This document shows, one piece after another, positions 1 to 56,900 of a stretch of 64,000 nt of DNA. The DNA lies in NCBI RefSeq assembly GCF_032854445.1, contig NC_088304.1, forward strand, positions 22,489,513 to 22,553,512, written 5' to 3'. The translations under genes and the position numbers were made by a program. Position 1 is the first letter of the stretch. Each line of letters begins with the position of its first letter. Below the pieces are notes generated by a model. It had not been told where the DNA came from and made no database searches. It was given only the letters and a program-made list of their open reading frames with translations. The stretch is from Liolophura sinensis. Its lineage: Eukaryota.

Positions 1-3000
1 TGTGGACTGCTAACTTAATAGACTCAAGTGAGGACACGACAGAGCGCTGTGGACTGCTAACTTAATAGACTGGAGTGGGGACACGACAGAGCGCTGTGGA
101 CTGCTAACTTAATAGACTGGAGTGGGGACACGACAGAGCGCTGTGGACTGCTAACTTAATAGACTGAAGTGAGGACACGACAGAGCGCTGTGGACTGCTA
201 ACTTAATAGACTGGAGTGAGGACACGACAGAGCGCTGTGGACTGCTAACTTAATAGACTGGAGTGGGGACACGACAGAGCGCTGTGGACTGCTAACTTAA
301 TAGACTGGAGTGGGGACACGACAGAGCGCTGTGGACTGCTAACTTAATAGACTGGAGTGAGGACACGACAGAGCGCTGTGGACTGCTAACTTAATAAACT
401 GGAGTGGGGACACGAAAGAGCAATGTTGACTGCTAACTTAATAGACTCAAGTGAGGACACGACAGAGCGCTGTGGACTGCTAACTTAATAGACTGGAGTG
501 AGGACACGACAGAGCGCTGTGGACTGCTAACTTAATAGACTGGAGTGAGGACACGACAGAGCGCTGTGGACTGCTAACTTAATAGACTCAAGTGAGGACA
601 CGACAGAGCGCTGTGGACTGCTAACTTAATAGACTCAAGTGAGGACACGACAGAGCGCTGTGGACTGCTAACTTAATAGACTGGAGTGGGGACACGACAG
701 AGCGCTGTGGACTGCTAACTTGATAAACTGGAGTGGGGACACGAAAGAGCAATGTGGACTGCTAACTTAATAGACTGGAGTGGGGACACGACAGAGCGCT
801 GTGGACTGCTAACTTAATAGACTCAAGTGAGGACACGACAGAGCGCTGTGGACTGCTAACTTAATAGACTGGAGTGGGGACACGAAAGAGCGCTGTGGAC
901 TGCTAACTTAATAGACTCAAGTGAGGACACGAAAGAGCGCTGCGGACTGCTAACTTAATATACTGAAGTGAAGGCATGACCGAAAGAGCGCTGTGGACTG
1001 CTAACTTAATAGACTGAAGTGAAGGAATGATAGAAAAAGCGCTGTGGACTGCTAACTTAATAGACTGGAGTGGGGACACGACAGAGCGCTGTGGACTGCT
1101 AACTTAATAGACTGGAGTGGGGACACGACAGAGCGCAGTGGACTGCTAACTTAATAGACTCAAGTGAGGACACGACAGAGCGCTGTGGACTGCTAACTTA
1201 ATAGACTCAAGTGAGGACACGACAGAGCGCTGTGGACTGCTAACTTAATAGACTGGAGTGGGGACACGACAGAGCGCTGTGGACTGCTAACTTAATAGAC
1301 TGGAGTGGGGACACGACAGAGCGCTGTGGACTGCTAACTTAATAGACTGAAGTGAGGACACGACAGAGCGCTGTGGACTGCTAACTTAATAGACTGGAGT
1401 GAGGACACGACAGAGCGCTGTGGACTGCTAACTTAATAGACTGGAGTGGGGACACGACAGAGCGCTGTGGACTGCTAACTTAATAGACTGGAGTGGGGAC
1501 ACGACAGAGCGCTGTGGACTGCTAACTTAATAGACTGGAGTGAGGACACGACAGAGCGCTGTGGACTGCTAACTTAATAAACTGGAGTGGGGACACGAAA
1601 GAGCAATGTTGACTGCTAACTTAATAGACTCAAGTGAGGACACGACAGAGCGCTGTGGACTGCTAACTTAATAGACTGGAGTGAGGACACGACAGAGCGC
1701 TGTGGACTGCTAAGTTAATAGACTGGAGTGAGGACACGACAGAGCGCTGTGGACTGCTAACTTAATAGACTGGAGTGGGGACACGACAGAGCGCTGTGGA
1801 CTGCTAACTTAATAGACTGGAGTGAGGACACGACAGAGCGCTGTGGACTGCTAACTTAATAGACTGGAGTGGGGACACGACAGAGCGCTGTGGACTGCTA
1901 ACTTAATAGACTGGAGTGGGGACACGACAGAGCGCTGTGGACTGCTAACTTGATAAACTGGAGTGGGGACACGAAAGAGCAATGTGGACTGCTAACTTAA
2001 TAGACTCAAGTGAGGACACGACAAAGCGCTGTGGACTGCTAACTTAATAGACTGGAGTGGGGACACGACAGAGCGCTGTGGACTGCTAACTTAATAGACT
2101 CAAGTGAGGACACGACAGAGCGCTGTGGACTGCTAACTTAATAGACTGGAGTGAGGACACGAAAGAGCGCTGTGGACTGCTAACTTAATAGACTGGAGTG
2201 AGGACACGACAGAGCGCTGTGGACTGCTAACTTAATAGACTGGAGTGGGGACACGACAGAGCGCTGTGGACTGCTAACTTAATAGACTGGAGTGGGGACA
2301 CGACAGAGCGCTGTGGACTGCTAACTTGATAAACTGGAGTGGGGACACGAAAGAGCAATGTGGACTGCTAACTTAATAGACTCAAGTGAGGACACGACAG
2401 AGCGCTGTGGACTGCTAACTTAATAAACTGGAGTGGGGACACGACAGAGCGCTGTGGACTGCTAACTTAATAGACTCAAGTGAGGACACGACAGAGCGCT
2501 GTGGACTGCTAACTTAATAGACTGGAGTGGGGACACGAAAGAGCGCTGTGGACTGCTAACTTAATAGACTGGAGTGGGGACACGAAAGAGCGCTGTGGAC
2601 TGCTAACTTAATAGACTGAAGTGAGGACACGAAAGAGCGCTGTGGACTGCTAACTTAATAGACTGAAGTGAAGGAATGATAGAAAAAGCGCTGTGGACTG
2701 CTAACTTAATAGACTGGAGTGGGGACACGACAGAGCGCTGTGGACTGCTAACTTAATAGACTGGAGTGGGGACACGACAGAGCGCTGTGGACTGCTAACT
2801 TAATAGACTGGAGTGGGGACACGACAGAGCGCTGTGGACTGCTAACTTAATAGACTGGAGTGAGGACACGACAGAGCGCTGTGGACTGCTAACTTAATAG
2901 ACTGGAGTGGGGACACGACAGAGCGCTGTGGACTGCTAACTTAATAGACTGGAGTGAGGACACGACAGAGCGCTGTGGACTGCTAACTTAATAGACTGGA

Positions 3001-4063
3001 GTGGGGACACGACAGAGCGCTGTGGACTGCTAACTTAATAGACTGGAGTGGGGACACGACAGAGCGCTGTGGACTGCTAACTTTAATAGACTGAAGTGAA
3101 GGCATGATCGAAAGATCGCTGTGGACTGCTAATTTTATAGACTGAAGTGAGGACACGAAAGAGCGCTGTGGACTGCTAACTTAATAGACTGGACTGAAGG
3201 CATGATCGAAAGAGCGCTGTGGACCACTAACTGTATGGACTGGAGTGAAGGCATCATCAAAGAGCGCTGTGGACTGCTAACTTAATAGACTCAAGTGAAG
3301 GCATGATCGAAAGAGCGCTGTGGACTGCTAATTTTATAGACTGAAGTGAGGACACGAAAGAGCGCTGTGGACTGCTAACTTAATAGACTGGACTGAAGGC
3401 ATGATCGAAAGAGCGCTGTGGACCACTAACTGTATGGACTGGAGTGAAGGCATCATCAAAGAGCGCTGTGGACTGCTAACTTAATAGACTCAAGTGAAGG
3501 CATGATCGAAAGAGCGCTGTGGACTGCTAACTTAATAGACTCAAGTGAGGACACGAAAGAGCGCTGTGAACCACTAACTTTATGGACTGGAGTGAAGGCA
3601 TGATCAAAAGAGCGCTGTGGACTGCTAACTTAATAGACTGAAGTGAAGGCATGATCGAAAGAGCGCTGTGGACTGCTAACTTTATTGACTGAAGTGAGGA
3701 CACGAAAGAGCGCTGTGGACTGCTAACTTAATAGACTGAAGTGAAGGCATGATCGAAAGAGCGCTGTGGACCACTAACTTTATGGACTGGAGTGAAGGCA
3801 TGATCAAAAGAGCGCTGTGGACTGCTAACTTAATAGACTGAAGTGAAGGCATGATCGAAAGAGCGCTGTGGACTGCTAACTTTATTGACTGAAGTGAGGA
3901 CACGAAAGAGCGCTGTGGACTGCTAACTTAATAGACTCAAGTGAAGGCATGATCGAAAGAGCTCTGTGGACCACTAACTTTATGGACTGGAGTGAAGGCA
4001 TGATCAAAAGAGCGCTGTGGACTGCTAACTTAATAGACTGAAGTGAAGGCATGATCGAAAGAG
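1..4063. repeat. Satellite array with a 47-bp unit of about 85 copies. A variant subfamily of about 51 bp (gaagtgaaggcatgatcgaaagagcgc) dominates from about 3060. Higher-order repeats of about 200 bp occur at about 3100-3300 versus 3290-3490, and also in the 400-2400 region.
   Basis: The unit tgtggactgctaacttaatagactggagtggggacacgacagagcgc recurs at positions 1 and 48. Variant units recur in fixed order. The array ends abruptly at 4063. Confidence 0.95.
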
Positions 4064-11768: not shown

Positions 11769-11885
11769 GTTGTTTGGTAAGTTACGGATCCGGAGTTCCG
11801 TCATCGGTTGGGTTCATGTGTCCCTGCAAAGCCGGTCTTACCTGTACTCCGAGTGGCTACTCAGACATGCCCCTGGGACCCATGG
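11769..11885 (+). CDS. Prokineticin/astakine-like gene, exon B2. It encodes the C-terminal half of domain 2: (G)CLVSYGSGVPSSVGFMCPCKAGLTCTPSGYSDMPLGPM(G).
   Basis: The acceptor is cgcttgcag|gt and the donor is cccatgg|gtaagtggcc. The exon is 117 nt and contains the CPC motif. Its last 30 nt plus the donor are the seed of the downstream 78-bp satellite. Confidence 0.55.
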
Positions 11886-26794: not shown

Positions 26795-27790
26795 CACCGC
26801 ACCTGATCCCAGCTGGTGGACTAAGCATTCCCGAGGCCTGGTCCCTGCTAGTGGACTAAGCATTCCCGACGCCTGATCCCTGCTGGTGGACTAACCATTC
26901 TCGACACCTGGTTCCTCCTGGTGGACTAAGCATTCTGGAGGCCTGGTCTCTGGTAGTGGACTAAGCATTCCCTACACCTCGTCACTGATGGTGAATAAGC
27001 CTTCCCAAAGCCTGATCCCTGCTGGTGGACTAAGCATTCTTGAGACCTGGTCCCTGCTAATGTACTGAGTGTCCCCGAGGCCTGGTCCGTGCTGGAGGAC
27101 TAAGCATTCCCTAGACCTGGTCCCTGCTGGTGGACTAAACATTACCAAGGCCTGGCCCCTGCTGGTGGACTAAGCATTCCCTTGACCTGATCTCTGCTAG
27201 TGGACTAAGCATTCCCTTGACCTGATCTCTGTGGGGATTAAGCATGCCCGGGCCTGATCCCTGCTAGTGGGCTAAGCATTTCCGAGGCCTAATCCCTGTT
27301 GGTGGACTAAGTATTCTCGAGACCTGATCCCTGCTGGTTGACTAAGCATTCCCGAGACCTGATCCTTGCTGGTGGAATAAGGATTCACGAGACTTGGTCC
27401 CTGCTGGCGAACTAAGCATTTCCGAGCTCTAATCCGTGCTGGCGAACTAAGCATTTCCGAGCTCTGATCCCTGCTGGTGGACTAAGGATTCCCGAGACGT
27501 GATCCTTGCTGGTGGAATAAGGATTCACGAGACTTGGTCCCTGCTGGTGAACTAAGCATTTCCGAGCTCTAATCCGTGCTGGCGAACTAAGCATTTCCGA
27601 GCTCTGATCCCTGCTGGTGGACTAAGGATTCCCGAGACGTGATCCCTGCTGGTGAACTAAGCATTGCCGAGGCCTGGCCCCTGTTGGTGGACTAAGCATT
27701 CTTTGGGCGTGAATCCTGTTGGTGGACTAAGTATTACCTCGATCTGGTCCCTGTTGGTGGACTAAGCATTCCGGAGACCTGGTCCCTTAT
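26795..27790. repeat. Satellite with a 35-bp unit in about 28 copies (ctggtggactaagcattcccgaggcctggtccctg). A 140-bp higher-order repeat is visible at 27390-27470 versus 27530-27610.
   Basis: Direct repetition is visible. ORFs 27272-27594 are artifacts. Confidence 0.9.
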
Positions 27791-28850: not shown

Positions 28851-29239
28851 GTGTGTTTTGTTCATCTGTTATACTGCATGCTGCATATGATTGGCTGATT
28901 AGGTTACACTCGGCAGAATATATTTACATTTATCGATTTCTAATCGATCAGATGGTATAACATTTTGAAGGAGAACCTTAACCCTATTCATTTATTCAGC
29001 AATATTGCTTTGATGCACACATATGGCTTCAGGCCGAAATGTACTCGTATCCATTAACTATGGTATGGCGTATGGTGTATGTTATATACCAATGGGCTGC
29101 AAGTTGTGCCGCCATGATCTGCTGAACTTCATTCACCACACATGCATAAGTATTGTAATTGGTGAACTTGAAAGGTTTTAACGGAGACATGAAGAAATAA
29201 GGCGAACTAGTTGGCCAACATGTATCGTATTTCAAAGAT

Positions 29240-29507
29240 TTATTTATTTATTTATTTGATTGGTGTTTTACGCCGTACTCAAGAATATTTCACTTATACG
29301 ACGGCGGCCAGCATTATGGTGGGTGGAAACCGGGCAGAGCCCAGGGGAAATCCACGACCATCTGTAGGTTTCTGACAGGCCTTCCCACTTACGGCCGGAG
29401 AGGAAGCCAGCATGAGCTGGACTTGAACTCACAGCGACCGCATTGGTGAGAGACTCCTGGGTCATTGCGCTGCTCTAGCGCGCTAACCAACTGAGCCACG
29501 GAGGCAC
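29240..29507 (-). mobile_element. SINE family A, full length, minus orientation. It lies in an intron of the C4-like gene.
   Basis: Reverse complement of the family A consensus. The (taaa)n tail is at the 5' side and the head ...ctgagccacggaggcacc is at the 3' side. Confidence 0.9.
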
Positions 29508-29939
29508 CCTTATTTCAAAGACGTTTGGCAGTTTGTGGTATGGTATGAAATCAGTAGCTACCCTCATACCAATAATGAGGTCAAGGCATCATCACGTAAA
29601 TGTCAAAGATTTCACAAGCCTTCGATCCACATTACGGGATCATTACCATGTGTATCGAAAGCTTGTGAAACCTTTTACATTTACGTGGCGATGCCTTCAC
29701 TTCATTATTACCATTGAACCCACGTACAAGTATTTGAGTCTCGGAGTTTTCTCCCTTGTGGCGAAAAAAAAAAGCATTTGAGGATGGCGATTTCCTGATA
29801 ATGGCGAACGGAGCATGTGATGAGGGCAGCCACAGCCGTGTACTTTGAGAGTCTTGAATGCATACAAGCATTAAGATTTATATCATAATGATAATACGAT
29901 TTGATAATGGTCGAAAGTCCTCTGGACTTCTGCTCATTC

Positions 29940-30125: not shown

Positions 30126-30151
30126 CTCATTTGTGTTTCACATATTTTCAG

Positions 30152-30654
30152 GAGCTGCCGGAGGCGGATATTTCGGCCATGCCGGAGCCCCAGCCAACAT
30201 CATGTGTATGCCAAGGGTACCGACGTGGGGCCAGCACAACGATCAGTTTTTCGGAACAAAGGGGCATCAGTCTTACATGTACGGTGTAGAGTACAAGCTT
30301 CAAGCCCTGGACTTTCCCTTTGGACATGAGCACGCTGAAGCCCTGGAGAACCATAACGTGCCCTGCGCGGTATGCATGAGCAAGGTGCGAGGAAGCCAGC
30401 TGATGGTGCCAGGACGGATGGACTGTGTCCCTGGCTGGCACCTCGAGTACTCAGGCTTCCTGATGGCAGGGGATTACCAGACGACGGGGGCCTCGGAGTA
30501 CATCTGCATAGACAAGGACCCGGAGGCCGATCCGGCCGGCTACCGCGGCGAAAGCTCACATAATCTCGTCCCTGTGGAAGCCCAGTGCGGTTCTCTCCCC
30601 TGTCCCCATTACGTAAGTGGTCGAGAAATAACCTGCTCTGTGTGCACCAAGTAG
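30152..30654 (+). CDS. C4 (collagen IV NC1)-like gene, terminal coding exon of about 167 aa: (G)AAGGGYFGHAGAPANIMCMPRV...PCAVCMSKVRGSQLMVPGRMDCVPGWHLEYSGFLMAGDY...CSVCTK*.
   Basis: The acceptor is catattttcag|ga and the split Gly codon is completed across the intron. The motifs CAVC-x15-CVPGW-x3-YSGF match collagen IV NC1 / 'short-chain collagen C4' (CAVC...CPSGW..LW.GYSF). Codon usage is GC-rich and non-repetitive. The stop TAG is at 30652-30654. Confidence 0.7.
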
Positions 30655-31265
30655 TGTAAATGGGTTATATATCAGTGCTGTCTGCTCTATGTGCACCGGT
30701 TGAATAGGTTATGCGCCAGTGTGTCCTGTGTGCATATAGGTTATATGCCCCTACGTCAGTGATATTTGTTCTATGCATCACATAACGTGAATCAAAAGTT
30801 TTACGTCAGTGTCATCTCTTTTGCGTTTGCACCCTGTAACGTGAATACGTTCTGCGGCACCGTTATCTGTTCTGTGTGTGCACCAAGCAGCGTGAATAGG
30901 TTATACGACGGTGTTATCTGCTCTGTCTGCACCAACTAGCATGAATAGGTTGTACGTCAGTGTTTTCTGCTCTGTGTGCGCCAGATTGCATGAACAGGGT
31001 ATTCGTCATTGTTATTTTCTAAGTGCGCATACCAAGATAGCGTGAACAGGCTATACGTAAGTGTTATTTTCTATGTGTGCACACTAAGTAGCGTGAATAG
31101 GCTATACATCAGTGTTATTATCTATATGTGCGCACCAAGGTAGCGTGAATACGTTATACGTCAGTGTTATCTATTGTCTGTCTGCACCAAGTACCTTGAA
31201 TAGTCTATACGTCAGTGTCATTTGCTCTGTCTGATCCAAGTAGCGTGAGCAGGATCTGTATCGTC
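30620..31265. repeat. Tandem array of about 11 units of 57-60 bp, seeded from the last 12 codons and stop of the C4 exon. Units look like (ct)gtgtgcaccaagtagcgtgaataggttatacgtcagtgttatctgct.
   Basis: The first unit overlaps the coding end ...ctgtgtgcaccaagTAGtgtaaatgg. Each later unit keeps tgcaccaag-tag. The array forms the start of the 3'UTR. Confidence 0.85.
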
Positions 31266-36800: not shown

Positions 36801-37039
36801 AATTATTGATAATGATAAATGAATGGTCCAAGCTGTCCGTGTACATGTAGTACTCCAGCGAGGTCCCGTTTGTCTTCAGATACAAGTGTCCGGGGTAGAT
36901 CAATATCTTGTAAATATAACAGCAGAAATGTAACAAAAATATATATGCTATGTTTCACGTAAAGTTTGTTATGTATAAAAAATGCACGTTCAGCATTTCG
37001 AATTTGTACCTGAAGGTAACTGTGGCCTGATATGAACAT

Positions 37040-37745
37040 TAGTAGTGTGAGTCATGAAAACCTGGCAGAACTAGCTGTTCATGTGAACACTAGCAGCGTG
37101 CGTCAGGAAAACCTGGCAGGACTAGCTGTTCACGTGCACACTAGCAGTGTGAGTCATGAAAACCTGGCAGGACTAGCTGTTCACGTGAACACTAGCAGTG
37201 TGAGTCACGAAAACCTGGCAGAACTAGCTGTTGACATGAACACTAGCAGTGTGAGTCATGAAAACCTGGCAGGACTAGCTGTTCACGTGAACACTAACAG
37301 TGTGAGTCATGAAAACCTGGCAGGACTAGCTGTTCACGTGAACACTAGCACTGTGCGTAATGAAAACCTGGCAGGACTAGCTGTTCATGTGAACACTAGC
37401 AGTGTGCGTCATGAAAACCTGGCAGGACTAGCTGTTGACGTGAACACTAGCAGTGTGAGTCATGAAAACCTGGTAGGACTAGCTGTTGACGTGAACACTA
37501 GCAGTGTGAGTCATGAAAACCTGGCAGGATTAGCTGTTGACGTGAACACTAGCAGTGTGAGTCATGAAAACCTGGCAGGACTAGCTGTTCATGTAAACAC
37601 TAACAGTGTGAGTCAAGAAAACCTGGCAAGACTAGCTGTTCATGTGAACACTAACAGTGTGAGTCAAGAAAACCTGGCAAGACTAGCTGTTCATGTGAAC
37701 ACTAGCAGTGTGCGTCAAGAAAACCTGCCAGTACCAGCTGTTCAC
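37040..37745. repeat. Satellite with a 51-bp unit in about 14 copies (cactagcagtgtgagtcatgaaaacctggcaggactagctgttcacgtgaa). The + strand reads as a perfect 17-aa repeat (VHVNTSSVSHENLAGLA), which gives the 261-aa ORF 37032-37817.
   Basis: The period is 51 bp, equal to 17 codons. There is no splice or start context beyond the repeat itself. Confidence 0.85.
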
Positions 37746-43600: not shown

Positions 43601-44369
43601 TGACTGCCAGTGATCATATTCTCCTCAATATTAAGTAGATGTTAATACAGTCTTATTTTCAAGGCCCCAGGTCCCGGGATCACGGGACGATCTTAGACTT
43701 AAGTCCAAATTTTAATCATTCAATTTGGTATGTTACGTTTCGTTACTTTAGCAGAAATTTTGTTGTACAATAACTCACCCAGAATTTACGTTGCCAAACA
43801 ATATTTTGATTTTGTTACATCAGGTATAAGAAATTTAAAGTCATCTGAAATTTTTATTTAAGCCTAGGATCGCATCAAAATGCGACAAGGATGATGAAAC
43901 TGCCTTAAACTTAAGTTAGACAACATTTTAATTGTAGCTGTGTTGAAGCTTTGACTTAAGACGTTTGATAAATGCGAGCCCCGCTGACAGTAATGGCGTC
44001 AATAACGCGCCTTAACGTGCTAATATACATATATTCCTCATATTTTGGAAGCACTACATTGTTTTTGGACGAAAACATATTTAGCGGCTGACTTGTGTTT
44101 CTCTTCGAAAAACTAGTAAATTTATCTAAACTTTTTTTATGATGCTTTTTGAAATTCCACGAAGACTTACTTGAGAAACGTCCACAAATTCTTTGGTGGG
44201 TTGAAATGTTTCCAGCAAGCGTAGCTACAAAGACAGTACAGATAGAGACACATTTCATTGGGTGTAGGGGAGTGAAACTCGGATTCCAATGAAAGATGAA
44301 TAAAGTGGAACCTAAAAGCGAGGTTTATGGCTGTACGGTTTTAAGGGAAATAAAGAAAGTTGAAAGTTG

Positions 44370-44639
44370 TTTATTTATTTATTTATTTGATTGGTGTTTT
44401 ACGCGGTACTCAAGAATATTTCACTTATACGACGGCAGCCAGTATTATGGAGGGTGAAAACCGGGTAGAGCCCGGGGAAACCCACAACCATCCGTAGGTT
44501 GATGGCAGACCATCTCACGTACGGCCGGAGAGGTAGCCAGCATGAGCTGGACTTGAACTCATAGCGACCGCATTGGTGAGAGACTTCTGAGCCATTACGT
44601 TGCGCTAGAGCGCTAACCAACTGAGCCACGGAGGCCCCC
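44370..44639 (-). mobile_element. SINE family A, full length, minus orientation.
   Basis: The tail tttatttatttatttatttgattggtgttttacgcggtactcaagaatatttcacttatacgacggcagccag is at the left. The head ...ctaaccaactgagccacggaggcccc is at the right. Confidence 0.9.
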
Positions 44640-45289
44640 GAAAGTTGTTTAAAAGGCTTTCAAATAAATTTTCATATTTGAGATATATTTTATATATTTT
44701 CATCAGCCCTCTATTTTGGGGATTTTACTTTCCTTTCAACAATGTTGAATAAGTGTGCCTGAATGCAAAGAATGTCTCAGTATTGACGAAAACAATGAGT
44801 ATATTTAATTATAATCAAGAAGAAAAAGACAATGAAAAATCCCACAATGCATCAGCAGGTACCTTAGCGTCCGGAAATGAGACGTTGTCCCGTTCACTAA
44901 CTGTCCTTATCTGACCCTGAGCAACTACAACACAAATCTCTGCAGTTATATTCCAACGTTATTAGAATTCATCTCATATACACAATGTCTAATAAATAAT
45001 AAAGGTGCCTGTACATGTACACAATATCACAAAATGAACATTTTAAATTCTATCGTTTACGCTAATAACAGGCCTCAATTCATGAATCAGTTATTAGATC
45101 AATTTGAATGGCGTTTTTCCAAACGTTCATCAGTATTTCAATTATAACGACGGCGTTCGGATTTATGGATAAATGAAACCAGAGGCAGTCGGGTGAAAAT
45201 GCTCACAGGTGAAACTGAAACCGAACCGGAGTCAGCTGGGTTCGAACCCGCGATAATTCATTTGTAGCTGCCAGCCGTTTCCAGTCCTA

Positions 45290-46100
45290 CTGCCTAAGAC
45301 AGAGGAATGGACGTGAGGATTGTATGTAGACACCATCAGGCAGAACAATGGATGTGCGGGTTGTACATGCAGATACAATGAGACAGAAGCATGGTTGTGT
45401 GGATTGTACACGCAGACACAAGGAGAGAAGAATGGACGTGGGGGCAGTACATCCAGACACAATGAGACAGAACAATGGATGTGCGGGTTGTACATGCAGA
45501 CACAATGAGACAGAACAATGTATGTGGGGATTGTACATGCAGACACAATGAGACAGAACAATGAATGTTGGGATTGTATATGTGGACACAATGAGACAGA
45601 AGAATGGATGTTGGGATTGTATATGTAGACACAACGATACAGATCGATGGATGTGCGGATTGTATATGTAGACACAATGAGACAGAACAATGAATGAGGC
45701 ATTGTACATGCAGATGCAATGGGACAGAACAATGGATGTGGGGATTATACATGCATACACAACGGAACAGAAGTTTGTCATGGGGGCAAAGAGGCAGAAC
45801 AATGGATGTGGGGATTGTACATGCATACACAATGAGACAGAAGCATGGTTGTGGGGATTGTACATGCAGACACAATGAGACAGAAGCATGGTTGTGGGGA
45901 TTGTAAATGTACGTGCAGAGGCAATGCGACAGAACAATTGATGTGGGAATTGCACATGCAGATACACAATGAGACAGAACATTGGATGTGCGGATTCAAC
46001 ATGCTGGCGCAATGACAGAGAACAATGGAGATGCGGATTGTACATGTAGACACAATGAGGCAGACGAATGGATGTGGGAATTGTACATGCAGACAGTGTT
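45290..46100. repeat. Satellite with a 43-bp unit in about 19 copies (gacacaatgagacagaacaatggatgtgcgggttgtacatgca).
   Basis: Direct repetition is visible. The overlapping ORFs 45232-46131 on both strands are artifacts. Confidence 0.9.
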
Positions 46101-46239: not shown

Positions 46240-46375
46240 CTTGCCAGTTAAAACTCCCTCGGGAAGGTCTGTCAAGAATCTGCGAATGGTTGCTGGTTTC
46301 CCCCGGGCTTTGCCCGGTTTCCTCCCACCATAATGCTGGCCACCGTCGTATAAGTGAAATATTCTTGAGTACGGT
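46240..46375 (+). mobile_element. SINE family A 3' part.
   Basis: gaaggtctgtcaagaatctgcgaatggttgctggtttcccccgggctttgcccggtttcctcccaccataatgctggccaccgtcgtataagtgaaatattcttgagtacgg. Confidence 0.8.
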
Positions 46376-46771: not shown

Positions 46772-46875
46772 CTTGGTCAGCCCCACGACACCGTGTTTAG
46801 CAGCACAATAAGCGGATTTCTGGGGAGAGGCTACTAGCCCGTGCACAGACGCTACGTTGATTATCCTGCCCCACC
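46772..46875 (-). CDS. SDR (3-hydroxybutyrate-dehydrogenase-like) gene, exon 5: (G)[34 protein letters not shown]. It contains the catalytic Y-x-x-x-K.
   Basis: On the minus strand the acceptor is cattttctctctag|gg (entered in phase 1 from exon 4) and the donor is accaag|gtaggg. It matches bacterial Bdh[36 protein letters not shown] nearly residue for residue. Confidence 0.65.
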
Positions 46876-47486
46876 CTAGAGAGAAAATGTCAACATTTCA
46901 CGACGTATATGAATCATTATAAATTATGTAGGCCTATTTCCGTAATAAAGAATTTGCTATATATTGCAAGGCATTCATTTCTGTTCGTCGACAGAAACAA
47001 TCTTGGTTTGCATAATCAACGGATGATATAAGAAAATTTATACTTGGACTTATATGTTGGGATACCCTATTTCTTTTAATTTTTGGGACACCTGGTCTAC
47101 TCATTTTAGCCAATATATATGGAATTGTAGCAGGAATATTTTCCTCACATGGTTAGATCATCCAATGAACAACATACTCAAGTCTTTAATTTCCAAAAGG
47201 TTGGTAAAGAAATGTAATATTCTACTTTCAACACTAATAATATCTGTCCCAAATTTTAGAAGAATTAGGGTATTCAAAATATTTGGAGTTGTCAAAAAGG
47301 TGCAAACGATCATATACTAATGTTATAAGTGCTAATGTTGCGTTGTTCATAAAAAAAACATTGTGGCACAAGACCCGTATCTATTTACATACTGCGGCTG
47401 TAATAAACGAAAGAGAAAGCAAACAGAATGGAAAAGCACTAATATGAGAGATGGAAAAATGAAAACGTATTAGACATTCGGATTAC

Positions 47487-47609
47487 CTTTGGTTTTCATT
47501 CCAGGTAGGAATGATCGGATGAGGTGAAACGGAGCGGAAAGCATGACGGCGACAAGTAAATTCCACTTCTCTACAGGAAAGTCCTCTACAGGACAAACAT
47601 GCTGTAGTC
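47487..47609 (-). CDS. SDR gene, exon 4: (G)LQHVCPVEDFPVEKWNLLVAVMLSAPFHLIRSFLPGMKTK(G).
   Basis: On the minus strand the acceptor is ttgtcttctttcag|ga and the donor is aaccaaag|gtaatccg. It is in phase 1 at both ends. It aligns to BdhA IQHTALIEDFPTEKWDAILALNLSAVFHGTAAALPHMKKQG. Confidence 0.65.
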
Positions 47610-47984
47610 CTGAAAGAAGACAAACACAAAGCTGAGCAGCTGTTCAGTTCGACTGAACAATTCTTTGTTTCGCGAGAGCGGAAGTCAAACTACTATTATG
47701 TTACCGCACTTTATTCTTGGAAAACCTCCAGCTCAGTTCATGCCACACTCCTTACAGCGCATGCGTCGCTTTCTACCTTTCGCTTTGCATATATGTGACA
47801 CACGTAGGCTATTTAGGCTTAGCCTCATCACTTGTGTCCTCCCGCGGAACTATTTAATCATCATTCATCAAAAAACTTGTTTTAAGGTTTTAGTTAGAAT
47901 CATGTTGCACATACTCTACATAAAGAAAATGAATGTGTATAAAGTATTGTGAGAGACAAAGATTGACAAGGATTGTTTGTGTTT

Positions 47985-49235
47985 TCTGACATCATCACCC
48001 CACACATAAGCCGTAAGTGTAAAGGCTTACCAACGTTATTCACAACACGTCTACACCGTGTACGTCTTAATATTTCACCACCCCATACAGAAGCCGTAAG
48101 TGTAAAGGCTTACCAGCATTATTCACCAACACGTCTACACCGTGCTCATCTTAATATTTCACCACCCCATACAGAATCCGTAAGTGTAAAGGTTTACCAA
48201 CGTTATTCATAACACCTTTACACCGTGTACGTCTTAATATTTCACCACCCCACACAGAATCCGTAAGTGTAAAGGCTTACCAACGTTATTCACAACACGT
48301 CTACACCGTGTACGTATTAATATTTCACCACCCCATACAGAAGTCGTAAGTGTAAAGGCTTACCAACGTTATTCACAACAGGTTTACACCGTGTGCATCT
48401 TAATATTTCACCACCCCATACAGAATCCGTAAGTGTAAAGGCTTACCAACGTTATTCACAACACGTCTACACCGTGCTCGTCTTAATATTTCACCACCCC
48501 ATACAGAATCCGTAAGTGTAAAGGCTTACCAACGTTATTCACAACACCTTTACACCGTGCGCATCTTAATATTTCACCACCCCACACAGAATCCGTAAGT
48601 GTAAAGGCTTACCAACGTTATTCACAACACGTCTACACCGTGCTCATCTTAATATTTCACCACCCCACACAGAAGCTGTAAGTGTAAAGGCTTACCAGCA
48701 TTATTCACCAACACGTCTACACCGTGCTCATCTTAATATTTCCACCACCCCACACAGAAGCTGTAAGTGTAAAGGCTTACCAACGTTATTCACAACACGT
48801 CTACACCGTGCTCATCTTAATATTTCACCACCCCACACAGAATCCGTAAGTGTAAAGGCTTACCAACGTTATTCACAACACGTCTACACCGTGCTCATCT
48901 TAATATTTCACCACCCCACACAGAAGCTGTAAGTGTAAAGGCTTACCAGCATTATTCACCAACACGTCTACACCGTGCTCATCTTAATATTTCACCACCC
49001 CACACAGAAGCTGTAAGTGTAAAGGCTTACCAACGTTATTCACAACACGTCTACACCGTGCTCATCTTAATATTTCCACCACCCCACACAGAAGCTGTAA
49101 GTGTAAAGGCTTACCAACGTTATTCACAACACGTTTACATCGTGTGCATCTTCATGTTTCCTCACCCCATACAGAAGCCGTCAGTATAAAGGCTTACCAG
49201 CATTATTCACCAACACGTCTACACCGTTCGGAAAT
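47985..49235. repeat. Satellite with an 80-bp unit in about 15 copies. There are two unit variants (accagcattattcaccaacac / accaacgttattcacaacac). In minus sense each unit equals the last 33 nt of SDR exon 3 (..EHGVDVLVNNAG) plus the first 47 nt of the intron, including the GTAAGC donor.
   Basis: The minus-strand reading of a unit is ...gatgagcacggtgtagacgtgttggtgaataatgctg|gtaagcctttacacttacggcttctgtatggggtggtgaaatattaa. The genuine exon end at 49198 is the first unit. ORFs 47973-48212 and 49144-49356 are artifacts. Confidence 0.9.
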
Positions 49236-49322
49236 TCTCTTGCCACTTCGTTACACATGCGGGTCACCTCAGATTCCAGACTCAGATCTGCATCAACGAA
49301 ATGGCATCTTACGCCATGTTTC
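49198..49322 (-). CDS. SDR gene, exon 3: (R)KHGVRCHFVDADLSLESEVTRMCNEVAREFPNGVDVLVNNA(G).
   Basis: On the minus strand the acceptor is atttcttccag|ga (phase 2, joining exon 2's trailing AG) and the donor is aatgctg|gtaagcc. It aligns to BdhA HGVKVLYDGADLSKGEAVRGLVDNAVRQMGRIDILVNNAG. Confidence 0.7.
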
Positions 49323-50120
49323 CTGGAAGAAATATAATTTTCATCACATCGATTAATATATTTACGTATTACTTTGATAGATTTTTATTCCCTACTGCAG
49401 AATCAGCTTGACAAACTGTTACATCAAAAACTTCGCATCTTATCTATTCCCTAACAAACCTCCACACTTTTGGGTTCCTAGGGTAACATAGGTTCTAAAG
49501 TTGTGAGCCTATGTTACCCTAGGAATATACAAATGTGTTTACTTTAACTCTTCTTGTCTGTGCATGGAGCTCGTACTAGAAATGACGATTTATTTGCTTC
49601 TGTCAAGTCTTACGCTATCTAACTGCTTCACCCGTAAAACAACAGTAAAATAGGATTTAGCAATAGATTCCACACTTTGGATCTGAATTGCGCAAGCTAT
49701 TAATTCGTCTTGGATGTTGGCGTAAACATACAAATCTGTGATATCTTGTGAGAAAAGAGCGTGAAGCTCGCTCTCTGTGTTCTCCTGGATGTTGATCCGG
49801 CACCTGGCGACAAGCCACAAACTCAGAATTAGCATGTTGGTGATTTTTTTTTAACTGAGCTCTGCCCCACCGTTTGTCTTCCACCTATATGCCTGGCGAT
49901 AGACCACAGACCCAGAAAGTAGAATGTTAGTGGTTTTGGGTGGGCTCTGCCCAATCAGTGGTATTCCGCCAATATGGCGTGCAGGCCGTCACGCCTGAGA
50001 ACGTTGGTTCATAACTCACCAAAGGTCGGTGGTTCTGTCGTACCTGCCAAAATATTCTTAAGTAAAACATCCAGTGAAATAAACATAACTGTTAAATGAC
50101 ATGCATACATACACCTACCT

Positions 50121-50277
50121 GTTGATGTTGTCCTGAATTGCTTGTATCTGATGTCGGTCTCCTAGACCGTTCACGATGACGTCACAGCCTCGTTCAGCTA
50201 ACGTCTCCGCCACTCCGAGTCCGATGCCGGATGTAGACCCGGTTACAAGGGCGGTCTTACCCGAGAGGTCACGACCT
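50121..50277 (-). CDS. SDR gene, exon 2 (Rossmann-fold NAD-binding start): (x)RDLSGKTALVTGSTSGIGLGVAETLAERGCDVIVNGLGDRHQIQAIQDNIN(R).
   Basis: On the minus strand the acceptor is gtaatactcctcag|gt and the donor is caacag|gtaggtgt. The TG-x3-GIG glycine-rich motif appears in the specific form GSTSGIGLG(I/V)A, which is typical of (R)-3-hydroxybutyrate dehydrogenases. The upstream Met exon was not found. Confidence 0.75.
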
Positions 50278-55377: not shown

Positions 55378-55779
55378 CCGAGATGTTATCGCACGTCCAT
55401 GGTATGTTACTTTTTGGTGACTTGGTGCCAGTAATATACACTCCTCAATACCCCCATTAACAGCAGATTCAGTTACAGGATAAGGTAGTATATGTTATAA
55501 GGGGACAATAGTTAACGTATATCAGGGGACACAACTCTTATGACCTCTTAACACTACTGGATAGTCTCTCTTGACTTGCGCATCTGATCAGTTTTCTCTT
55601 TCTTATAGCGCTTACTACGCATTTAGCAAACTGTGAATACTCTTGAAGAGTTCTACTCTACTTGCCAACATTTTGGTATGTGGTATACTTAGGCCATTTA
55701 AAATCGGCGTTTTGAACAGGAAATTTGCAAATTGGTTGGTGTTCAGATCTAGCTTTGGCAGATTCACTGATTTACCCGT

Positions 55780-56900
55780 TCATGTACATGTGCTGTGTTT
55801 CCCAGATAAACCTTCCTGTATATGTGCTGTGTTCTCAGAAAAAACTTCCCGCATATGTGCCGTGTTTCCCAGGTAAACCTTCCTATTTATATGCCGGGTT
55901 TCCCAAATAAACCTTCCTACATATGAGCAGTGTTTCCCAGATAAACCTTCCTGTATATGTGCTGTGTTTCCCAGATAACCATTCCTGTATATGTGCTGTG
56001 TTTCCCAGATAAACCTTCCTGTATACGTACTGTTTCCCAGATAAACCTTCCTGTATACGTGCTGTGTTTCCCAGATAAACCTTCCTGCATATGAGCTGTT
56101 TCCCAGATAATCCTTCCTGTATACGTGCTGTTTCCCAGATAAACCTTCCTGCATGAGCTGTGTTTCCTAGATAAACCTTCCTGCATATGAGCTGTGTTTC
56201 CCAGATAACCCTTCCTGTGTATGTGCCATGTTTCCCAGATAAACCTTCCTGTATACGTGCTGTTTCCCAGATAAACCTTTCTGCATATGAGCTGTGTTTC
56301 CCCAGATAAACCTTCCTGTATACGTGCTGTTTCCCAGATAAACCTTCCTGCATATGAGCCGTGTTTCCCAGGTAAACCTTCCTATTTATGTGCTGTGTTT
56401 CCCAGGTAAACCTTCCTATTTATGTGCTGTGTTTCCCAGATAAACCTTCCTGTATACGTGCCGTGTTTCCCAGATAAACCTTCCTGTATATGTGCTGTGT
56501 TTCCCAGATAATCCTTCCTGGATATGAGCCGTGTTTCCCAGGTAAACCTTCCTATTTATGTGCTGTGTTTCCCAGATAAACCTTCCTGTATACGTGCTGT
56601 TTCCCAGATAAACCTTCCTGTATACGTGCTGTGTTTCCCAGATAATCCTTCCTGGATATGAGCCGTGTTTCCCAGGTAAACCTTCCTATTTATGTGCTGT
56701 GTTTCCCAGGTAAACCTTGGTATAAATGTGCAGTGTTTCCAAGATAACTCTTCCTGTATATGTGGTATGTTTCCCAGATAAACCTCCCTGTATGTGTTCT
56801 GTGTTTCCCACATAAACCTTCGTGTATATATGTTATGTTTTCCCACATAAACCTTCTTGTACATATGCTTTGTTTTCCGGGTAAACGTTGTTGTAGGCTC
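55780..56900. repeat. Satellite with a 34-bp unit in about 32 copies (cccagataaaccttcctgtatacgtgctgtgttt).
   Basis: Direct repetition is visible. ORFs 55643-56977 on both strands are artifacts. Confidence 0.9.

Follow-up and report, generated by a model that had tools for sequence, protein, structure and literature searches.

A BdhA-type 3-hydroxybutyrate dehydrogenase-like gene in the chiton Liolophura sinensis: introns shared with other animals and a broken exon in the RefSeq model

The closest described relatives of the gene reported here are the bacterial D-3-hydroxybutyrate dehydrogenases of the BdhA type, with structures from Pseudomonas fragi (1WMB, 2ZTL), Alcaligenes faecalis (2YZ7), P. 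putida (2Q2Q) and Sinorhizobium (3V2H), and the beta-3-hydroxybutyrate dehydrogenase of Trypanosoma cruzi (PDB 9C5H-9C5O), a structurally characterised protist member of the same bacterial-type family. By analogy, members of this family are expected to interconvert (R)-3-hydroxybutyrate and acetoacetate in an NAD-dependent reaction with a Ser-Tyr-Lys centre. The vertebrate enzymes BDH1 (SDR9C, lipid-requiring and mitochondrial), which has the same nominal activity, and BDH2/DHRS6 also belong to the superfamily of short-chain dehydrogenases/reductases (SDRs), but to other SDR families. The gene in this study lies in a stretch of 64,000 nucleotides of the Liolophura sinensis genome, hereafter the window (NCBI RefSeq assembly GCF_032854445.1, contig NC_088304.1, positions 22,489,513 to 22,553,512 of the forward strand); according to two reports, this genome was first published as that of L. 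japonica and the name was corrected later (PMC11068029, PMC12441733). The locus very probably holds a single annotated gene for a BdhA/PHB_DH-type, NAD-dependent (R)-3-hydroxybutyrate dehydrogenase-like classical SDR, which is old and vertically inherited, and whose sixth exon is truncated in the assembly.

A profile that combined the window fragment with two amphioxus paralogues returned the RefSeq protein XP_064613216.1 ('D-beta-hydroxybutyrate dehydrogenase-like', L. sinensis, 305 aa) as a 100% match to the gene in the window, and the chiton gene is already annotated in RefSeq under the right family name. Mapping of this protein back onto the window gave nine coding exons on the minus strand, with a coding sequence (CDS) running from 51578 to 41984 over ~9.6 kb (Table 1), and exon CDS sizes of 157-157-125-123-104-(broken)-62-54-90. 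Seven of the eight introns have GT-AG sites. An earlier note, made from the letters of the sequence, had joined four minus-strand exons, which are exons 2-5 of the nine and whose 169-aa peptide equals residues 54-222 of XP_064613216.1. A tblastn search of the window with that peptide recovered all four exons from the minus strand, 98-100% identical except at split codons, and their boundaries have canonical AG/GT sites. They start in different codon phases and join as had been claimed (N-R/K-H-G, NAG/LQH and KTKG/WGR), with exon 5 ending in phase 0 after GLTK. The coordinates given for exons 3, 4 and 5 were exact, and those for exon 2, placed at 50277-50121, were 2 nt too high. The C-terminal exons were found where the earlier note had expected them, past the 43-bp satellite and below 45290 (exons 6 to 9), and the exon with the initial Met lies upstream of the four.

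Table 1. Features of the window, in positions of the 64,000-nucleotide stretch (a slash marks a splice junction).
Feature	Coordinates	Strand	Details
Exon 1 CDS	51578-51422	-	157 nt; Met and ~52-53-residue N-terminal extension MKYVSRLRFCNRLMQVCLKWSSCSRRDPTLVGGSGCGFYLPSRRFSDESASA(C); donor GTAAGT; exact match to XP_064613216.1 residues 1-53
Exon 2	50275-50119	-	157 nt; RDLSGKTALVTGSTSGIGLG...; NAD-binding TGxxxGIG; acceptor cctcag/GT CGT GAC, end AAC AG/gtaggt
Exon 3	49322-49198	-	125 nt; KHGVRCHF...VLVNNAG; ttccag/G AAA ... GCT G/gtaagc; size and phase conserved in all six species compared
Exon 4	47609-47487	-	123 nt; LQHVCPVEDFPVEKWNLLVAVMLSAPFHLIRSFLPGMKTKG; tttcag/GA CTA ... AAA G/gtaatc; carries Gln149; Met at the expected catalytic-tetrad Asn
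Exon 5	46875-46772	-	104 nt; tctag/GG TGG ... ACC AAG/gtaggg; catalytic Ser197, Tyr210, Lys214, and His199, Lys207
Exon 6 remnant	45293-45267	-	27 nt, AVGLETAGS, after acceptor ctctgtcttag/; RefSeq takes 45293-45276 only
Exon 7	44924-44863	-	conserved 62 nt; (x)AQGQIRTVSERDNVSFPDAK; acceptor agatttgtgttgtag/ phase 1; donor /gtacct
Exon 8	44224-44171	-	54 nt; LRLLETFQPTKEFVDVSQ
Exon 9 CDS	42076-41984	-	90 nt and stop; IADLIHFLCTRSADQITGSAFTIDGGWTAR, then stop
83/84-bp tandem array	47992-49227		14.8 copies, intron 3
43-bp satellite	45297-46095		18.9 copies, intron 5
~270-bp dispersed SINE-sized repeat	44367-44643		intron 7; partial second copy 46258-46374, intron 5
Single-exon open reading frame	30133-30654	+	XP_064613215.1 (LOC135476997)
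49-52-bp tandem array	30840-31248		directly after the open reading frame 30133-30654
Minisatellite array	1-4046		47 bp x85
Minisatellite array	11857-14831		78 bp x38
Minisatellite array	21010-22041		44 bp x24
Minisatellite array	26801-27787		35 bp x28
Minisatellite array	37033-37745		51 bp x14
Minisatellite array	55779-56886		34 bp x33

The chiton protein is collinear with bacterial BdhA over the whole mature protein, and shares with it TGSTSGIG, NNAG, the Ser-Tyr-Lys residues (Ser197, Tyr210 and Lys214) and a C-terminal DGGWTA, so that the cofactor and catalytic motifs of a classical SDR are all present. Its Gln149, His199 and Lys207 stand at the positions which, from the P. fragi structures, we take to bind the substrate carboxylate in bacterial BdhA. 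The best families of the four-exon fragment were TIGR01963 and NF009093, both of them models of 3-hydroxybutyrate dehydrogenase. XP_064613216.1 scored 265.3 bits against NF009093 (PRK12429), above the cutoff of 258 and covering profile positions 3-258 of 259, and 267.9 bits against TIGR01963, under the curated cutoff of 307.05; the six animal members tested were all under the latter cutoff (230-300 bits), yet TIGR01963 was their top family. The best matches in the PDB by phmmer were bacterial D-3-hydroxybutyrate dehydrogenases (E = 1e-52 to 1e-56); the T. cruzi enzyme also matched (E = 2e-47 to 2e-45; 42-43% identity to the chiton protein in structural alignment). Among protein-database matches to exons 2-5 the best were enzymes of bacteria (57-62% identity), and one amphioxus protein reached 52%. 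These results bear out the bacterial BdhA-type signature that the earlier note had read from the motifs, and support the assignment of the chiton protein to the bacterial BdhA/PHB_DH type.

The predicted fold points the same way. The AlphaFold2 model of the chiton protein, which has a predicted local distance difference test (pLDDT) score of 83 overall and <50 at residues 1-37, is closest to 1WMB, 2ZTM, 2YZ7 and 2Q2Q, with template modelling (TM) scores of 0.90-0.94 normalised to the target. The closest fold is that of the P. fragi enzyme (1WMB, Foldseek E = 1e-28, TM 0.90), and the top 46 Foldseek matches are D-3-hydroxybutyrate dehydrogenases except 5YSS, the entry for which names an aminocaproic acid cyclase. 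Neither BDH1 nor BDH2 was among the best 60 PDB sequence matches or the best 50 structure matches, which suggests that the chiton enzyme belongs to another family than these two.

Unlike bacterial BdhA, the chiton gene is nuclear, has eight introns, encodes an N-terminal extension of ~53 residues and lacks the beta-F/CPGW segment in the assembly. The catalytic-tetrad Asn (AINLSA in most bacterial enzymes) is also replaced, by Met169 (VMLSAPF; codon 47537-47539, exon 4). This Asn-to-Met change (xMLxxPF) is present in all animal members and in 25 of the 335 sequences collected, including some from bacteria (Fictibacillus, Deinococcus and an alphaproteobacterium-like contig). The first 26 residues of the N-terminal extension include seven basic and no acidic ones, a basic leader which suggests that the extension probably represents a mitochondrial presequence.

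When 1.8 billion cluster representatives were searched exhaustively with a profile and matches were looked up by name, the same subfamily was placed in molluscs (Magallana gigas XP_034329316.1, M. angulata and Mytilus galloprovincialis), annelids (Owenia fusiformis and Dimorphilus gyrociliatus), the brittle star Amphiura filiformis (an echinoderm), the acorn worm Glandiceps talaboti (a hemichordate), three Branchiostoma species (cephalochordates, with two paralogues each) and a bdelloid rotifer (Didymodactylos), and it is annotated in at least seven animal phyla. The family is also present in protists, namely in an MMETSP transcript, a foraminifer and, through its PDB entries, T. cruzi. Amphioxus has been reported to have 14 BDH1-like genes (PMC3184775) and carries BdhA-type genes as well, so that at least one animal has the two types side by side. 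The Mytilus galloprovincialis models (P0317/P0390) are chimeric, with an unrelated N-terminal part of 340 residues fused to the C-terminal two-thirds of a BdhA-type protein.

Introns were compared by mapping the proteins of five animal loci to their own genomic DNA, which with the chiton makes six species of five phyla. The comparators were the M. gigas gene, A. filiformis XP_072047737.1, G. talaboti XP_077979074.1, Branchiostoma LOC109480375 with its paralogue, and O. fusiformis CAH1781755.1; these invertebrate genes, annotated as D-beta-hydroxybutyrate dehydrogenase(-like), belong to the same subfamily as the chiton gene, carry the MLxxPF signature as it does and have introns at the same positions and in the same phases (exons of 125, 123, 104, 62, 54 and 90 nt). 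The exon CDS sizes are 83-174-125-123-104-73-62-54-90 in amphioxus, 81-173-125-123-104-73-62-54-90 in Glandiceps, 155-125-123-104-73-65-51-90 in the oyster, 173-125-123-104-73-62-48-87 in Amphiura and 141-152-125-123-177-62-144 in Owenia, where the sizes 177 and 144 reflect the loss of two introns (104+73 and 54+90). Amphioxus has identical positions and phases for seven of the eight chiton introns, and five are common to all six species. An extra leader exon is present in amphioxus, Glandiceps and Owenia as in the chiton, while the oyster and brittle-star proteins have no N-terminal extension. Intron positions common to five phyla indicate that the bilaterian ancestor already had the gene with its introns; the gene and its fixed exon-intron structure both date from before the bilaterian radiation. 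In amphioxus and Glandiceps a second SDR gene is the divergently oriented neighbour of the BdhA-type gene (L001, 1-8327/10001-16719; L005, 1-2569/3001-9002), this neighbour being the BdhA-type paralogue P0142 in amphioxus, and the two genes may form an old head-to-head pair.

In all of the invertebrate comparators the exon that follows ...GLTK is intact (VVALETAGTGVTCNAICPGWV...). It measures 73 nt (fused in Owenia into 177) and encodes VVALETAGTGVTCNAICPGWVxT, which is beta-strand F with the PG motif of the substrate loop, a segment that in this enzyme type (TCNAICPGWVxTPL) bears residues of the substrate pocket. In the chiton this exon is not kept whole. What remains of exon 6 reads GCA GTA GGA CTG GAA ACG GCT GGC AGC (AVGLETAGS), identical to Owenia and amphioxus at 7 of 8 residues, after which come TAC AAA TGA (YK-stop) and then unrelated sequence that is unique in the window. 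No in-frame GT donor was found between the exon 6 acceptor and this stop, and 46 nt coding for GVTCNAICPGWV are absent. An exon with the CPGW/PG motif was sought first on the minus strand and afterwards in the window as a whole, by regular expression and by tblastn with bacterial, amphioxus, annelid, mussel, hemichordate and brittle-star queries, and none was found. The exon 6 acceptor lies 4 nt past the end of the 43-bp satellite, the last unit of which supplies its polypyrimidine tract.

The RefSeq model crosses this gap by joining 45276 to 44949 (T228/I229), for which the implied intron would be GC..AT or GG..AA. It also extends exon 7 upstream by 25 nt, to 44949, adding ITAEICVV from a region where other species have the polypyrimidine tract of their conserved exon 7 acceptor. 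Skipping of exon 6 shifts the frame and leads to a premature stop (TKLLRVR, then stop), skipping of exons 6 and 7 gives an in-frame product of 270 aa, and a weak GC donor (CTG/GCAGCT, 45272/45271) spliced to the conserved exon 7 acceptor gives an in-frame product of 298 aa; all of the alternative products considered are without beta-F and the PG motif. Conservation in at least 93% of 45 relatives singles out 79 columns, and the chiton protein differs at 10 of them: eight fall in residues 229-240, and the other two are a conservative A-to-G in the exon 6 remnant and V211C. The structural model has its pLDDT dip to 61-73 at residues 231-250, with EICVVV modelled as a strand at the place of beta-F.

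Another reading of the breakpoint was considered and rejected. ITAEIC could be read as a diverged VTCNAIC, with a short interspersed nuclear element (SINE) inserted into exon 6, but the 62-nt exon 7 with its phase-1 acceptor begins right after the ITAEIC stretch, and the intervening 330 bp have no second copy in the window. A tRNA-like GGTTCGAACCC box near the breakpoint gave no convincing alignment to two other such sites. Rfam and tRNA scans of the window returned no hits.

The simplest cause of the truncation would be a deletion running from the middle of exon 6 into intron 6. Such a lesion would leave the gene with no canonically spliced full-length product; what keeps the RefSeq protein in one piece is a non-canonical junction together with 25 nt that were once intron. 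No decay is seen elsewhere in the gene, which suggests that the lesion is recent, allelic or an assembly error; the chiton copy would accordingly be an allele damaged not long ago, a fault of the assembly or a variant with odd splicing, and its activity may be lost or altered. It is possible, if somewhat doubtful, that the defect is an assembly artefact, or one haplotype of a heterozygous deletion by the 43-bp satellite, and that the animal makes a normal full-length enzyme. The breakpoint is indeed only ~30 nt from this 0.8-kb satellite, and all other exons and splice sites are intact, as are 68 of the 70 conserved columns outside residues 229-240. Beyond the breakpoint, however, the sequence is unique in the window and continuous up to the exon 7 acceptor, as in a clean deletion and not a collapsed repeat, and the published assembly is HiFi-based (PMC11068029).

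With regard to the origin of the gene, it is possible but rather unlikely that a bacterial enzyme gene of the MLxxPF kind was taken up by a stem animal or in an earlier eukaryote, then gained introns and was lost in vertebrates and others. This proposal concerns origin only and is compatible with vertical inheritance of the gene within animals. In its favour, the animal proteins are as near to the bacterial enzymes as to one another, and the Asn-to-Met signature recurs in a bacterial minority that comprises P0001 (alphaproteobacterium-like by its neighbouring genes, and the top bacterial match), P0111, P0149, Fictibacillus and Deinococcus; the animal distribution also looks patchy, with no vertebrate or arthropod member among the matches named. 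The protist members, however, fit descent from an early eukaryote, for example via the mitochondrial ancestor, equally well, slow evolution of a tetrameric SDR accounts for the high identity to bacteria, and the tree is without resolving power. Neighbour-joining trees of 127 and of 31 sequences contained no supported animal clade; without bootstrap support, the chiton stood beside a Logan transcript of unknown source, then the mussel and annelid sequences, with bacterial sequences and sequences of unknown origin interleaved. A bacterial origin much further back in time may or may not lie behind the gene, the MLxxPF pattern being compatible both with an old transfer and with descent from an endosymbiont or an early eukaryote.

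That the chiton or mollusc lineage recently took up a bacterial bdhA by transfer, and gained the introns later, is in contrast very improbable. The best non-self matches by score are bacterial and exceed the identity to amphioxus, which would fit such a transfer, but the introns shared with amphioxus and across five phyla, the homologues in at least seven phyla and the host satellites and SINE-like repeats inside the introns all speak against it; the shared introns effectively refute a recent lineage-specific transfer, and one specific to the chiton or to molluscs is excluded. The suggestion of the earlier note that the gene was unusual or horizontally derived does not hold at the level of the chiton, and a place in a common animal SDR subfamily with the same motifs, which it had named as telling against horizontal transfer, is essentially what was found. 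Bacterial contamination, or symbiont sequence mis-assembled into the chiton scaffold, has only the bacterial-type family assignment in its favour and can be dismissed, since the gene has eight spliceosomal introns with host satellites and a ~270-bp dispersed repeat inside them, mollusc genes in its flank and an exon structure common to other animals; the earlier note was right that it is resident in a eukaryotic genome.

Several points weigh against the reading of the locus as an old, vertically inherited enzyme gene that has been broken in exon 6. Common descent of the animal genes is indicated mainly by intron positions, animal monophyly is without support in the neighbour-joining trees, and the MLxxPF signature of the animals occurs in some bacteria too. 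Enzyme activity and mitochondrial targeting are both properties that we infer from the protein sequence. A functional rebuilt protein is conceivable, given the EICVVV strand that is modelled at low confidence, and RefSeq normally demands evidence before taking a non-consensus junction, which makes an unusual but real mRNA possible.

The introns themselves carry repeats. The 83/84-bp array of intron 3, in which a higher-order period of 251 bp is visible, derives from ~30 nt at the end of exon 3, the 5' splice site of that exon and the ~53 nt of intron that follow. Fourteen additional copies of the authentic 5' splice site in exonic context (...GTGAATAATGCTG/GTAAGCC) consequently lie within the intron, and three of them are identical to the real junction over this stretch; the 14 copies are potential decoy donors. 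At least 20 copies of the ~270-bp repeat, 70-90% identical to one another, lie in the window (for example at 29239-29509, 22587-22856 and 20271-20527). The window as a whole is unusually rich in long minisatellite arrays, several of which create long spurious open reading frames. The single-exon open reading frame that corresponds to XP_064613215.1, on the same 36.6-Mb contig as the dehydrogenase gene, has relatives in molluscs only, which are labelled 'short-chain collagen C4-like' in bivalves and gastropods.

In the library searched, no directly relevant literature on bacterial-type 3-hydroxybutyrate dehydrogenases of invertebrates, oysters and trypanosomes was found, and no paper that discusses a BdhA-type enzyme in invertebrates. 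The meaning of these findings is modest and mostly a matter of annotation, as related genes are already annotated in many invertebrates, and what is mildly new is the conservation of introns across phyla and the broken exon hidden in the RefSeq model. This model conceals the exon behind a non-canonical junction and should be checked before comparative or functional use. Speculatively, and as a whole this is unlikely, the BdhA-type enzyme could be the ancestral, possibly mitochondrial, 3-hydroxybutyrate dehydrogenase of marine invertebrates, obtained from MLxxPF bacteria before the bilaterians arose and lost in vertebrates, with the chiton copy either dying or having its beta-F rebuilt from intron by way of a non-canonical splice. 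In invertebrates its role could be the use of ketone bodies, or of 3-hydroxybutyrate from dietary bacterial polyhydroxybutyrate. More generally, conservation of exon structure over five phyla argues cleanly that the gene of a metabolic enzyme which looks bacterial is an old one in animals, and it cautions against inferring horizontal transfer from best matches alone.

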